NCBI GenBank assembly: GCA_963800495.1
Contig: CAWDBB010000004.1
Span: 194,741 to 258,740, forward strand
Length of the DNA stretch: 64,000 nt
Reading direction: 5' to 3'
Origin: Candidatus Bathyarchaeota archaeon
GTDB taxonomy: Archaea > Thermoproteota > Bathyarchaeia > Bathyarchaeales > Bathycorpusculaceae
The notes beneath the pieces are model-generated. The model was not told the origin of the DNA. It did no database searches and saw only the letters and a list, made by a program, of their open reading frames with translations. Numbering within the stretch: the stretch's first letter is position 1; each line of letters starts with the position of its first letter. The position numbers were made by a program, and so were the translations under genes. Shown here piece after piece: positions 34,625 through 40,051 of the stretch.

Positions 34625-35503
34625 TTGAAATTTGGAATAATGACGCGGAACATGGAAGCATGGAGCTCCACGCAAGTTCGGGAAGCACTAACAAAGAGGG
34701 GCATCCCATACGAATGCTTTACTTTTCCAAGACTTGTTGCACGGTTAGCATACAGACCTTACTTTAAAGTTAACGGCACCAGCATCCTTGACGATTTAGA
34801 TGCACTTATTATTCGACCAATCGGGCGGGGTTCGCTTGAGGAACTAGTTTTCCGAATGGACATGCTCTACAAATTGGAACGCAAAGGCTTCTATATGGTG
34901 AATCCACCCACAGCCATTGAGCATTGCGTCGACAAATACGACATTCTTGCCATTCTTGAAGATGTAGGCGTTCCTGTACCACGCACATTAGCTACTGAAA
35001 GCGTCAACGAAGCGCTTAAGGCGTTTAACGAACTCGGCGGCGACATCGTCGTCAAACCAATCTTTGGCTCACGCGGGCAAGGCGCCACGCGTGTTAACGA
35101 CATAGACATCGCTGACACTGTCTTCAAAGCCATAACCTTTCACCACGGCGTAATCTACATGCAAGAATTTGTCCCCCACGGAACCTCAGACATACGTGCC
35201 TTTGTTATCGGAGACCAAGTGGTTTCATGCATGCGCAGAGTAGCTACAGGATGGAAAACCAACTACAGCCAAGGAGCCAAACCAGCACCAGCAACAATCA
35301 GCAAAGAATTCGAAGAAATAGCTGTGAAATCTGCAAAGGCAGTTGGCTGCAAAATAGCGGGTGTAGACATCCTGGAAGGACCAGATGGACCGCGCATCGT
35401 GGACGTGAATAGCCAACCGGGCTGGAAAGGACTTCAGGTGGTTGCGAAAGTTAACATAGCCGAAGAAATAGTCAACTTTGTTCTAAAAGAACTAAAAAAA
35501 TAA
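34625..35503 (+). CDS. RimK-family ATP-grasp glutamate ligase (possibly MptN-like H4MPT:glutamate ligase)
   Basis: DKY, VPRT, VVKPIFGSRG.G, YMQEFV, DIRAFVIG, W.TN.SQG, AGVD, VNSQPGW. Confidence 0.88.
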   Translation: MKFGIMTRNMEAWSSTQVREALTKRGIPYECFTFPRLVARLAYRPYFKVNGTSILDDLDALIIRPIGRGSLEELVFRMDMLYKLERKGFYMVNPPTAIEHCVDKYDILAILEDVGVPVPRTLATESVNEALKAFNELGGDIVVKPIFGSRGQGATRVNDIDIADTVFKAITFHHGVIYMQEFVPHGTSDIRAFVIGDQVVSCMRRVATGWKTNYSQGAKPAPATISKEFEEIAVKSAKAVGCKIAGVDILEGPDGPRIVDVNSQPGWKGLQVVAKVNIAEEIVNFVLKELKK

Positions 35504-36502
35504 TTATCTTCCTGACAGAATTCGGGTATATGGGTCTTCGGCAACTTGCGGAAAAGGCGTTTCTTTTCCTTTTCTAATTAGAATACGTTCTTTGTTTTCG
35601 GTAAATTCCCCCAAAAAGTAGACCGAGAGCCCGAGCTCATTTAATGCGGTTTTTACTTTCTTTTGCGCTTCAGGAGCTACTCCACCCAAAATCGTTCCTG
35701 TCGAAGACATCGCGAGTAACTGGTCATCTGTTAGTTTAAAATGTTCTTTTAGCACGCCTGCTTCCTTTGGCACAGGAATTTTTTCCCAATCTACACTAAA
35801 CCCAACCTTTGAAGCCTCAGCCAACTCGTTGAGCGCCGCCACAAACCCACCTTCAGTCGCATCATGCATCGCATGAACACCCTCAACATTGGCAAGGCGA
35901 ATAGCTTCTTTAACGCAGCTCTGCATGCAAACCAGTTTGGCGAGTTCTTCTTGTTTGTCAACGCCAAAGAGCTCCTGCGCCTTCTCCGAATAGGTTAGTG
36001 AGAAGTTGGTGATTGTTTCTAACCCCAAGGGCTTTGTGCACAAAATCAGGTCTCCCGACTTGGCGTTTCCCGGCGTTATCAACTTCGTGGGTTCTACTGT
36101 TCCGTAAACAGTGCAGACTCCAAGCATATCATTGATACTGCCGTACATTCCTGTGTGTCCACGAACGATGGCGATGCCTAATTCTTCGGCTGCGCTGCAG
36201 GTTTGATTCATGATTTTTTGGAATACTTCAGGTTTTGTTCCTATTGGTCCAAGGAGATTTATGGTACAGAATTCTGGTTTTGCTCCAAACAGGGCCACAT
36301 CTGAAGCAGGATAATGAATCAAGAGCCAACCGAACCAATCTTCAGGAACCCCAGTACAGGGATCAGTTGCAACAGCCACGTACTTGCCATGTAAAAGGTG
36401 AACTCCTGCATCGTACCCAACCATAGGCGGGACTATGACTCGGAAATCCTTCTTGATGCAGCTTAATAGTTTTTTAAGGTCTTCCGTCGAGAGTTTTCCC
36501 AT
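35504..36502 (-). CDS. AIR synthase (PurM/HypE/ThiL)-fold protein
   Basis: MGKL, G.DAGV, TDP, SDVA..GA.P, GHT, GDLI..TK, MHDATEGG, SSTGT. Confidence 0.88.
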   Translation of the reverse strand: MGKLSTEDLKKLLSCIKKDFRVIVPPMVGYDAGVHLLHGKYVAVATDPCTGVPEDWFGWLLIHYPASDVALFGAKPEFCTINLLGPIGTKPEVFQKIMNQTCSAAEELGIAIVRGHTGMYGSINDMLGVCTVYGTVEPTKLITPGNAKSGDLILCTKPLGLETITNFSLTYSEKAQELFGVDKQEELAKLVCMQSCVKEAIRLANVEGVHAMHDATEGGFVAALNELAEASKVGFSVDWEKIPVPKEAGVLKEHFKLTDDQLLAMSSTGTILGGVAPEAQKKVKTALNELGLSVYFLGEFTENKERILIRKGKETPFPQVAEDPYTRILSGR

Positions 36503-36512
36503 TTTTCTTTCC

Positions 36513-37091
36513 TTAAAGGTAAATGTTTAGAGTTTTACTTCTCTGCAATAAGACAATAACGAATGCGCAGATAATAATGCTTGGCACCATGTACGTCGCA
36601 TTGTATATCGCTGAGTAAACAATTGGGCTCATTCCTGCTGGTGCATAGTTGGGAAAGTAGATTACGCCTGAAATGAAGTGAGACAGGAAACGACCTGTGC
36701 CGCCAACCACGACGCCGACAACTGGACCGATAACTTGGGGTTTTCGGAAAAAGCCTGCGAGTCCAAGACAAGCAAAGGCTAACGGATAATCAAGAATAAA
36801 TTGTGCTGGATTAACCACAAAAGGCTCAATTGCAAGGTCCACTACACCGAATACGGCGCCTGCAAATATACCGATTTTGGGTCCTCTTCGCAGTGCAAGC
36901 CAGAAGATAGGCACCATTCCAAGGTTTATTGAGCCTCCTTGAGGAAGACCAAAGAAGGAGTGGCTTACAAGAGCTAATGCGCCAGCCATAGCGACAAAGA
37001 TTATTATTTCTGCAAGAATTTTTGTTGGAAAGATAGTTTGACGTTCAGTTTGGAAGATATTTTCTTTAGGTTGTTCAGTATTTTGACTCAT
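36513..37091 (-). CDS. thiT: ECF transporter thiamine S-component ThiT
   Basis: LPQGGSI, P.Q.ILDYPLAF, RFLSHFISGVIYF..YAP.GM....YS..YN..Y; ATG 37091 follows GGAGGGA. Confidence 0.93.
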   Translation of the reverse strand: MSQNTEQPKENIFQTERQTIFPTKILAEIIIFVAMAGALALVSHSFFGLPQGGSINLGMVPIFWLALRRGPKIGIFAGAVFGVVDLAIEPFVVNPAQFILDYPLAFACLGLAGFFRKPQVIGPVVGVVVGGTGRFLSHFISGVIYFPNYAPAGMSPIVYSAIYNATYMVPSIIICAFVIVLLQRSKTLNIYL

Positions 37092-37095
37092 TGTT

Positions 37096-37190
37096 TTTCC
37101 CTCCGCCAGTATTACCTGGTTCAGGTTCCTAAGGGTCGACACCAAACAGGCGTCCTCTCAGCCGAGTCATTTTCCCAGCTCCCCAAGAAC
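37096..37190 (-). ncRNA. TPP (thiamine pyrophosphate) riboswitch
   Basis: Minus strand reads UUCUUGGGGAGCUGGG...CUCGGCUGAGAGGACGCC...GGUGUCGACCCUUAGGAACCUGAACCAGGUAAUACUGGCGGAGGGAA, containing the GGGG, CUGAGA, ACCC, ACCUGA, GUAAU and GCGnAGGGA consensus blocks. Confidence 0.95.
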
Positions 37191-37346
37191 TACGGAAAAT
37201 ATGGGTTTCTGTAACATATTAGGTTTGCTAAAGCTGATTTTTCTAGTTGTTGTCAAAAAACCCGGTTAAATAACAACGAACAGGTCACGAAGCATACAGC
37301 TCTGTGGTAAACCAACAAACGCAGTTCTCACATTTCTATAGCTGGT

Positions 37347-37556: not shown

Positions 37557-40051
37557 TTGATTAGCATGCAGCCTTTGCCTAAGGAATACAATTTTGCTGA
37601 GATTGAGCGTAAGTGGCAGCAGAAATGGGAAGAAATGGGCATTTACCATTATGACTGGAACGATAAAGTGCGGGTTCCTTTCAGCATAGATACACCGCCG
37701 CCTTACCCTTCAGGCGAATTGCATATGGGCAACGTCCTTAACTGGACATACTTTGACATGGTAGCACGGTACAAGCGCATGCAAGGCTTCAACGTTTTGT
37801 TTCCACAGGGGTGGGATTGCCACGGACTGGGCATAGAAATCCAAGTTGAAAAAGCCAGAAACATTCGCAAACGCGATGTCCCACCAGACCAATTCCGAGC
37901 CTGGTGCATTGAACTAGTCGAGAAGTACATTGCAATGATGAAGGAAGGCATCCTCAAGATGGGTGCAAGCATAGATTGGACCACCGAATACAAAACGATG
38001 GACCCAGACTATTGGCGCCGCACTCAACTTAGCTTCATTTTGCTTCATAAAAAAGATTACATGTATCGGGGAACTCACCCAGTCAATTGGTGTCCCAGAG
38101 ACGAAACCGCCATCGCCGACGCAGAAGTTGACCACATAAAAAAGGAAGGCACACTTCACTATATCCGGTTCCACCTTGAAGGAAGCAACGAATACCTTCT
38201 AATCGCCACTTCACGCCCCGAGTTTATCCCAGCATGCGTTGCAGTGGAAGTTAACCCCAAAGACGAACGCTACAACAAATACATCGGCAGAAAAATCTCT
38301 GTACCCCTCATGAACCGCGAAGTAACCATCATCCCCGAGGAGTCAGTGGACCCCTGTTTTGGCACGGGCGTCGTCCAAATCTGCACGTACGGCGACAAAG
38401 AAGACGTTAAAACCGTCATAAAACACAAACTCCCAGTCATCAGGCTCCTAACCACAAACGGGCAAATCAGCGAAGCAGGCTGCAAATACGCGGGTTTATA
38501 CGTTAACCAAGCACGCGCAGCCATAGTTGCCGATTTAACCGCTGCAGGACTGCTCGAGAAAACCGAGAAGATTCAGCAGGAAGTCGGCGTCTGCGATCGC
38601 TGCAAAGCCCAAGTAGAAATCCTCGAGGTTAAACAGTGGTTCATGAAAGTTCTACCATTATCCGACGCCGTAGTGAATAACGCCCTCGAAATCCCTTGGT
38701 ACCCCGACTACATGAAAAACCGCTTAATCGACTGGACCCGCGCCTTGGATTGGGATTGGGTTGTCAGCCGCCAACGCCTGTTCGCGACGCCGATTCCAGT
38801 GTGGTACTGCAAAAGCTGCGGCGAAGTCATCGTGGCAGAGGAAAGCTGGGTGCCGATTGATCCCCGAATGGAAAAACCAAGAATTGACAAGTGCCCCAGA
38901 TGCGGCGGAACGGAATTCACGGGTGAAACCGACGTGCTTGACACGTGGATGGATAGCTCAATCACCTGCGCTGTACACGCTGGCTGGCCCGACCGCCCAG
39001 ACTGGAAACACCTGTTCCCCGCAAGCATGCACCCGTCAGCGGCACAGACATAATCCGAACCTGGGCATACTACCTCATGGTACGCCATTTAGCCTTATTC
39101 GACCAGCGACCTTTCAACAGCGTCCTCATAAACGGCATGGTTCTCGGCGCTGACGGCAGAAAAATGAGCAAATCCCTCAAAAACTACGCTGCAGCACCTG
39201 AGGTTCTAAACAAAAGCGGCGCCGACGCAACTCGACAGTGGGCGGCTGGCGGAGGAGCAACAGGCTCAGACATTCCCTTCCGCGTCCAAGACGTCGAATA
39301 TGGCAGACGCTTCCTGACCAAGCTCTGGAACGTCGCTGGGTTTGCAAGTAACCTTTTGGCAGACTACGACCCTAAAGCCTACGCCCAAGTTGACCTGCAA
39401 CCGCTTGATAAATGGATTTTAAGCAAAACTGAAAATCTCATTAAAAAAGTCACCGAAGCTTATGAAAAATGCCAATTCAACATAGCCATCGAAGAAATCC
39501 GCAACTTCACCTGGCACGTCTTCTGCGACTACTACATCGAATCAGTCAAAGACCGACTCTACCGCCAAGAAACAGAAAACCTGCCTGCAAGACGAGCTGC
39601 GCAGCAGACTCTCCACGACGTCTTCTACAAGATTCTGCAGTTGCTAGCACCCATTACACCCCATTTGACTGAGGAAATATACCAAAACATGTACGCTCAA
39701 GCTAAGGGCTTTGTAAGTTTACAAATCACGCCCTGGCCAAAAATGGACAGTGCACTCGTTGATAATACGGCGGAAGAGGAAGGCGACAAAGTGATGGCAC
39801 TAATTGAGGACTTGCGAAGAAAGAAAGCAGCCCAAAAGCTGCCGCTGAACATTCCCATTCTGTCGCTGGAAGTCTACACAACAAACCAATCAAACGCCGA
39901 CCTAATCAACCAAAGCAAAAACGACATAGCCGGAACACTCAAAGTTGTAGGAGACTTCAAAATAATTCCACAAGCTGGCACGGGACAAGAAGTGCCGCAG
40001 TTTCCAGGAGTAATTCCCGTCGCTGTTTTTGGAGTGGCAAATAAAAAATGA
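37557..40051 (+). CDS. valS: Valyl-tRNA synthetase (apparent frameshift at ~39040)
   Basis: DTPPPYPSG.LHMGN, GWDCHG, W.VSRQR, DVLDTWMDSS; second frame resumes GTDIIRTWAYY...KMSKS. Confidence 0.93.

Follow-up and report, generated by a model that had tools for sequence, protein, structure and literature searches.

ThiK (YcfN) is a thiamine kinase of enterobacteria that has an APH/choline-kinase fold (TIGR02721) and converts thiamine and ATP to thiamine monophosphate (TMP). TMP is then phosphorylated to thiamine pyrophosphate (TPP) by ThiL (TIGR01379; PDB 3C9T, 5CC8, and 8YKS), a two-domain protein with a PurM fold and Asp-rich ATP/Mg motifs. In Firmicutes, units such as that of the Lactococcus lactis thiT leader place a TPP riboswitch directly upstream of the gene for ThiT, an energy-coupling factor (ECF) transporter S component, in auxotrophs that rely on uptake, and thiamine pyrophosphokinase (TPK) is encoded elsewhere (PMC8862789). 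The DNA described here, called the window, is a 64,000-nucleotide stretch from Candidatus Bathyarchaeota archaeon (contig CAWDBB010000004.1, positions 194,741 to 258,740), and it contains a riboswitch-thiT operon whose second gene encodes an enzyme of the PurM superfamily, P0001. The operon was confirmed and is strongly conserved, and P0001 falls outside every known thiamine kinase family. P0001 is very probably a thiamine-pathway enzyme of some kind. The best explanation of the operon, which is put forward tentatively, is that it is a two-gene thiamine uptake-and-activation unit of a thiamine-auxotrophic Bathyarchaeia archaeon. No paper describing the enzyme or the operon was found in the literature searched, with the archaeal ThiR regulon study (PMC5287396, J Bacteriol 2017) not covered.

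The first-pass annotation had described a riboswitch, thiT, a 10-nt gap, and an AIR-synthase-fold gene on one strand, and all of these elements are present on the minus strand. The spacer, the T run, and the Shine-Dalgarno (SD) sequence were read directly from the DNA. From the promoter side to the end of the operon, the features are:

37216-37221, minus strand: possible archaeal TATA box (TAATAT), judged from the sequence, about 24-26 nt 5' of the aptamer start
37081-37195, minus strand: TPP riboswitch aptamer (THI element; RF00059, 60.4 bits against a gathering threshold of 54.3, E 2.3e-9, full model 1-105)
37099-37104, minus strand: SD sequence of thiT (GGAGGG), 8 nt 5' of the ATG and inside the 3' strand of aptamer helix P4
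36513-37091, minus strand: thiT, thiamine-specific ECF S component of 192 aa (P0002), with its ATG at 37091 and its stop codon at 36513-36515
36503-36512, minus strand: 10-nt spacer between thiT and the enzyme gene, AGGAAAGAAA on the coding strand, which includes a weak SD-like AGGA
35504-36502, minus strand: gene for the PurM-superfamily (AIR-synthase-related) enzyme of 332 aa (P0001; PF00586 and PF02769), with its ATG at 36502
35494-35500, minus strand: run of seven T, 3 nt past the stop codon of the enzyme gene

The spacer, at only 10 nt, is too short for a terminator or for the separate promoter of the enzyme gene that would have spoken against the proposed operon. The T7 run is likely an archaeal oligo-T terminator at the operon end, as far as can be read from the letters. 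The genome assembly of the window (2.37 Mb in 12 contigs, 86.6% complete) was searched with RF00059 and the riboswitch at 37081-37195 is its sole copy. ThiT matches PF09515 with 160.9 bits and belongs to the TIGR02357 equivalog, which it matches with 148.3 bits against a cut-off of 108.45. An EcfT (CbiQ) protein for the shared ECF module is encoded elsewhere in the genome (C4:529255-529869, 123 bits). The operon is therefore like the Firmicutes units in that the TPP riboswitch lies directly upstream of the gene for an ECF ThiT protein; however, it differs from them in its archaeal host, in the coupling of an enzyme gene to thiT, and in the absence of TPK and the presence of ThiL. The riboswitch also differs from the Firmicutes leader, as the SD sequence is inside the P4 strand of the aptamer and there is no separate expression platform.

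The arrangement is conserved throughout the order. An ortholog of P0001 with 54-89% identity was found in 24 of 40 relatives, and thiT is directly upstream on the same strand in all 24; the tally over all genomes with an ortholog (54-100% identity) is 25 of 25. Each of the carrier genomes has exactly one TPP riboswitch, which heads the thiT-enzyme operon (syntenic matches of 57.8-72.2 bits); in relative G005, two extra genes lie between the riboswitch and thiT. Among GTDB species representatives, thiT is upstream of the enzyme gene in 80 of 80 loci (L049-L128; enzyme identity 60-82%). The two genes are adjacent in 71 of these loci, are separated by one inserted gene in 8, and are represented by a short tblastn alignment in 1. 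Judged by tblastn ends, most orthologous loci have a spacer of 2-31 nt. The riboswitch-thiT-enzyme arrangement is far beyond chance. The first-pass annotation had proposed looking for homologs that co-occur with thiamine transport genes or TPP riboswitches; thiT and a riboswitch are present at every orthologous locus, and distant homologs adjoin thiamine ABC transporters of the ThiB/ThiP type. Clustering at 50% identity gives a narrow ortholog group with four representatives, after which the scores fall from 325 to 235 bits.

Decaying copies of the operon were also observed. In G015 (L033), thiT is split and the enzyme gene has 5 stops, but the riboswitch is still recognised, with 63 bits. In G003 (L034), the enzyme gene alone is split, at about residue 135. 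The co-decay of thiT and the enzyme gene in G015 was counted in favour of the uptake-and-activation reading. Across L049-L128, the identity of ThiT to the ThiT of the window falls into bands (about 31-39%, 42-62%, and 68-95%) and the identity of the enzyme is steady at 60-82%, which suggests replacement of the thiT allele or recombination in front of a stable enzyme gene.

About 10% of the lineages have an inserted gene for a single-domain KaiC-like ATPase of 236 aa (PF06745, Walker A GPPGTGKT) separating thiT from the enzyme gene; copies of the ATPase gene were seen at the following positions:

L027:776-1486, L031:713-1480, L045:1852-2562, and eight of L049-L128: KaiC-like ATPase gene (PF06745)

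The KaiC-like copies share 70-90% identity with each other, which exceeds the conservation of the enzyme. In the lineage of P0125, the KaiC-like gene precedes the enzyme gene and there is no thiT. The KaiC-like protein was considered as an obligatory subunit of the enzyme; this was rejected because the genome of the window has no copy.

P0001 matches the AIRS domains PF00586 (42.9 bits) and PF02769 (78.7 bits), both over their cut-offs, and no other domains. The first-pass annotation had called the enzyme an orphan of a generically annotated subfamily and had quoted MGKL, TDP, and HDATEGG motifs. The protein does contain MGKL, ATDP, and MHDATEGG. The term orphan is fair, as the protein goes by no public names other than 'HypE', 'hydrogenase maturation factor', and 'AIR synthase-related protein'; likewise, its look-alikes in the atlas carry only generic HypE or AIR synthase names. 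Selenophosphate synthetase (SelD) and carbamoyl dehydratase (HypE) are the best sequence and structure neighbours of P0001, and the NCBIfam ranking has SelD first and ThiL second. None of these identities holds. P0001 scores 90.3 bits against SelD (TIGR00476), below the cut-off of 125, and it does not have the catalytic Cys/Sec that SelD features three residues before a conserved Lys. This position is absent because the protein starts with M-G-K and, in the alignment, its K3 corresponds to Lys20, the catalytic lysine in SelD from E. coli. The score against HypE (TIGR02124) is 74.8 bits and the cut-off is 251.6; the C-terminus of P0001 is ...RILSGR, without Cys, and the last residue is Cys in 0 of 15 aligned orthologs. 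The score against ThiL (TIGR01379) is 80.5 bits and the cut-off is 184.15. P0001 shares with ThiL the two-domain PurM fold (TM ~0.7), the Asp-rich ATP/Mg motifs, and a place in thiamine metabolism, but it differs from ThiL in its sequence (~18-20% identity), in its SelD-like N-terminal GK segment, and in its riboswitch-thiT operon, as ThiL stands alone in this genome. Homology to ThiK or TPK was also rejected, since P0001 has neither an APH-type fold nor TPK domains, and any likeness to them is functional only. There are no selenium or hydrogenase genes in the genomic context of P0001.

An AlphaFold (AF2) model of P0001 built on 124 homologs has a predicted local distance difference test (pLDDT) score of 97. 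Foldseek searches with this model matched SelD, HypE, and ThiL about equally (TM 0.7-0.8, ~20% identity, probability 1.0), and no closer solved structure was found, all of the PDB neighbours being ~20% identical. P0001 has the residues D31, D47, D68, H116, D214, and G219, which do not vary among 124 family members, and the further family-invariant residues G2, K3, T117, D151, H213, E217, and G218 are also intact. The intact ATP/Mg residues indicate that P0001 is likely an active ATP-using enzyme. Additionally, the subfamily of P0001 features six invariant cysteines of its own, which take the place of hydrophobic residues in relatives, and several aromatic residues.

The pathway genes of the carriers show where such an enzyme might act. 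The first-pass annotation had pointed to thiL, thiK, and TPK as genes to look for. The genome of the window encodes a genuine ThiL (C4:347926-348879, 255.3 bits against the TIGR01379 cut-off of 184.15), which stands alone 117 kb away. Searches of this 86.6% complete genome for TPK, ThiN, ThiE, ThiD, ThiC, ThiM, Thi4, and ThiK found none of them, and so neither a TMP synthase nor another known thiamine kinase was seen. TPK was found in 0 of 40 relatives. ThiK was found in 0 of 16 relatives over the cut-off, and the best match was 23.7 bits against 299. Among the 24 carriers of the order, there was no intact ThiC (one broken thiC is present in G002), no genuine ThiD, no ThiE, and no Thi4; the searches for ThiN, ThiM, and ThiK covered the genome of the window or a subset of the relatives. 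ThiL is encoded by all 29 high-quality genomes, among them every auxotroph that has no TMP synthase. In the TPK-using controls (L. lactis, T. maritima, D. radiodurans, and S. acidocaldarius), ThiL was not matched at E 1e-40 or better. Set against these controls, the universal retention of ThiL in the absence of a TMP synthase argues for TMP as an obligatory intermediate. No known gene accounts for the step from thiamine to TMP in the carriers, and the co-regulated P0001 is the sole candidate for it.

The genomes of the order feature three mutually exclusive states, and each reasonably complete genome has exactly one of them; this complementary distribution was counted in favour of the uptake-and-activation reading. 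The first state is the riboswitch-thiT-enzyme operon. The second occupies the same locus, again next to the RimK-like gene, in the sister genomes G004, G016, G023, and G030, and consists of a riboswitch and the genes for a different ECF S component, a methyltransferase, a P0001 paralog (31% identity), and ThiE:

L129:993-4005 (G016), with further examples at L130, L131, and L132: operon of a 180-aa S component (weak PF07155), an S-adenosylmethionine-dependent methyltransferase, a 350-aa paralog, and ThiE

No thiT and no ortholog of P0001 were found in the second-state genomes, nor were ThiD, ThiM, Thi4, and ThiC. The thiE gene of this operon is broken in G004. The third state is de novo synthesis with ThiC, Thi4, and ThiDN and without any riboswitch. 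The de novo producers G026, G025, and G036 (L041, L042, and L043) keep a stand-alone thiT with no enzyme gene attached and no detectable TPP riboswitch; in G025, this thiT again adjoins valS.

The wider family of P0001 is also linked to thiamine genes. P0124 (47% identity) has the riboswitch-thiT context. P0125 (46%) is encoded 1.5 kb from a ThiB-like substrate-binding protein (TIGR01254, 180 bits) and a ThiP-like permease. P0137 (39%) adjoins a 309-aa ThiN-domain protein, which may be a ThiR-type regulator, and a ThiB/ThiP pair. The genes for P0150 and P0141 overlap with stand-alone thiN genes, and P0136 is part of a row of thiN, methyltransferase, enzyme, and MFS genes. P0162 and P0163 are fusions with ThiN, in both orders, and P0212 is a 548-aa fusion of a HAD phosphatase with a PurM-like domain; all three are outside the sampling of the tree. 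A further fusion, P0222 (493 aa), joins a YacP-like NYN nuclease domain to a PurM-like domain. No thiamine genes were seen near P0133, P0135, and P0139 (37-40% identity), whose contigs are short or uninformative. A quick maximum-likelihood tree of 129 sequences revealed that the ThiT-linked group and the ThiE-linked paralogs are sister subclades of one 44-sequence clade, with a Shimodaira-Hasegawa-like approximate likelihood ratio test (SH-aLRT) support of 99. A third PurM-like paralog of 363 aa in the genome of the window (G000:C1:16472-17563; L134:3973-5064) is outside this thiamine-linked clade, and its gene sits between a PALP-PadR fusion gene and a radical-SAM/SPASM gene. The relatives of P0001 that are joined to TMP synthases, by ThiN fusions and by thiN/thiE overlaps, resemble archaeal ThiDN (ThiD-ThiN) and yeast THI6 (ThiE-ThiM); however, their kinase-like partner has a PurM fold and not a ribokinase fold. 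The subclade of the window differs further from ThiDN and THI6 in that it is no longer paired with a TMP synthase, which its genomes do not have, and is instead paired with a thiamine transporter. The idea that the family displaces ThiD or ThiM as a general rule was rejected, as G041 keeps genuine ThiD, ThiM, and ThiL beside a ThiN-coupled member of the clade.

The suggestion in the first-pass annotation of a thiamine kinase, pyrophosphokinase, or related salvage enzyme is thus upheld in its link to thiamine; the sequence does not settle the exact reaction, and the coupling or fusion to ThiN and ThiE gives the family a role wider than pure salvage. On the basis of the genomic context and the gaps in the pathway, we favour, with just under even confidence, a role for P0001 as an ATP-dependent thiamine kinase that feeds ThiL. 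In the proposed mechanism, plentiful TPP would bind the leader aptamer and stabilise the P4/P5 arm that holds the SD sequence of thiT, and the operon would be off; ligand binding should hide this SD sequence because it lies within the 3' strand of P4. When TPP is scarce, ThiT would capture thiamine for import by the shared ECF module; P0001, whose translation is coupled to that of ThiT, would convert thiamine and ATP to TMP; and the separately encoded canonical ThiL would convert TMP to TPP. P0001 would then be a functional analogue of ThiK that is not homologous to it and is built on the fold of ThiL, SelD, and HypE. The proposed reaction and the order of action, ThiK and then ThiL, are the same as in enterobacteria, but the folds are unrelated and no ThiK was found over the cut-off in the genomes searched, so P0001 would represent a non-orthologous displacement. 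The ThiT and ThiBPQ contexts, the retention of ThiL, and the absence of TPK, ThiK, and TMP synthase all agree with a thiamine kinase. The position beside TMP synthases is compatible with such an enzyme too, as a parallel way of making TMP.

There are several arguments against a thiamine kinase. The known acceptors of the PurM superfamily are an amide oxygen, phosphate, and selenide, and we know of no enzyme of the superfamily that phosphorylates an alcohol. The ThiT protein of L. lactis has been reported to bind TMP and TPP as well, and direct import of TMP by ThiT would remove the need for a kinase. Weak matches of APH-family kinases (~23 bits against the ThiK model) are present in 6 of 16 genomes. 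The HAD phosphatase fusion would be futile with a thiamine kinase, if the phosphatase acts on TMP. The ThiE of the second-state genomes has no visible source of hydroxymethylpyrimidine pyrophosphate or thiazole phosphate, and the conserved KaiC-like insert has a role that the kinase does not explain. Additionally, the genomes compared are kin and are non-independent samples. Lastly, the coupling to ThiN and ThiE, the ThiN fusions, and the gene set of G041 suggest that the common reaction of the family may be an unrecognised one; the reaction shared by the clade may be non-canonical because in G041 a clade member occurs alongside ThiD, ThiM, ThiN, and ThiL.

The last of these points leads to the alternative in which P0001 catalyses an unrecognised ATP-dependent reaction of the thiamine pathway other than the simple phosphorylation of thiamine, which we consider unlikely. 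An example would be the activation of an amide or formyl oxygen, as in PurM and HypE, that re-closes or repairs a thiamine vitamer, ring-opened or modified in some other way, that was taken up from anoxic soil. In the subclade of the window this chemistry would be applied to what ThiT imports, and in the relatives the same chemistry would take place beside ThiN and ThiE. The retention of the ThiN-coupled member in G041, despite a full set of ThiD, ThiM, ThiN, and ThiL, suggests such a non-canonical step, and the methyltransferases that recur as partners hint that precursors are modified. In its canonical chemistry, the fold activates an oxygen and then closes a ring or dehydrates; this agrees with such a step, as do the six invariant cysteines and the aromatic residues of the subfamily. 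However, no vitamer-repair step of this kind is known, ring closure of the thiol form is generally known to be spontaneous near neutral pH, and the cysteines, which replace hydrophobic residues of relatives, may simply be buried. This reaction would also leave the gap between thiamine and TMP open.

P0001 could also be an analogue of TPK that converts thiamine to TPP directly, with ATP going to AMP, by SelD-like chemistry. The rank of SelD as the best NCBIfam match and the alignment of the N-terminal GK with SelD Lys20 agree with this, and TPK is found in none of the 41 genomes. The HAD phosphatase fusion of P0212 would fit a route from TMP to thiamine to TPP, and the contexts adjoining ThiN and ThiE would fit organisms that route TMP via thiamine. 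This assignment is nevertheless rather improbable, as ThiL is retained in all 29 high-quality genomes while the TPK-using controls are without a ThiL match, and no PurM-fold pyrophosphokinase is generally known.

It is also rather improbable that P0001 is a second, divergent TMP kinase, or that it phosphorylates a precursor already carrying a phosphate, for example hydroxymethylpyrimidine phosphate (HMP-P), with TMP supplied by ThiT or by a kinase yet to be recognised. ThiL is the sole PurM-fold enzyme of thiamine metabolism and the second-best NCBIfam match of P0001 (80.5 bits), and phosphate is a proven acceptor for the fold. The ThiN fusions and the tight coupling to ThiN and ThiE would fit a step next to TMP synthesis. 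However, a genuine ThiL is present alongside in every genome examined, including G041 and G042, and the step from thiamine to TMP would stay unfilled in the carriers. An HMP-P kinase would be useless without ThiN or ThiE, and neither was found in the carriers. The weakest reading, that P0001 is unrelated to thiamine and is a HypE-like maturation factor or housekeeping enzyme riding on the thiT transcript, agrees with its public HypE and hydrogenase maturation annotation and with the lack of thiamine genes near P0133, P0135, and P0139, but it is very improbable given the HypE score of 74.8 bits against 251.6, the missing C-terminal Cys, the operon in 80 of 80 species, the co-decay with thiT, the independent links to ThiBPQ, ThiN, and ThiE, and the ThiN fusions.

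The genes around the operon also show some features. A gene for an ATP-grasp ligase like RimK and MptN (34625-35503, plus strand) converges on the end of the operon and shares its T-rich terminator region, and this gene is syntenic in all of the locus variants seen. On the other side of the operon, valS is split into two open reading frames of 498 and 324 aa (37557-39053 and 39077-40051, plus strand), which are in different frames and 23 nt apart. The relative G025 has a single 822-aa valS reading frame at the syntenic position, and the split is either a frameshift or an assembly indel. Genes for MBL-fold hydrolases adjoin members of the P0001 family in three unrelated contexts (L045:764-1648, L047:3122-3817, and L132:4021-4980).

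Bathyarchaeia are among the most abundant archaea of soils, peat, and sediments, and almost none of them have been cultured. The operon marks a large lineage of Bathyarchaeia as thiamine-dependent and names two genes for obtaining the vitamin, and it adds a well-supported TPP riboswitch regulon outside the Thermoplasmatales. Should P0001 be a thiamine kinase, it would add to ThiK and TPK a third route to thiamine activation, unrelated to either, and would be, to our knowledge, the first alcohol kinase on a PurM fold, and the 'HypE / hydrogenase maturation factor' misannotation would be corrected in well over a hundred protein clusters. The function of one member would annotate the whole family in many uncultured microbes and could expose a missing step in vitamin B1 metabolism.

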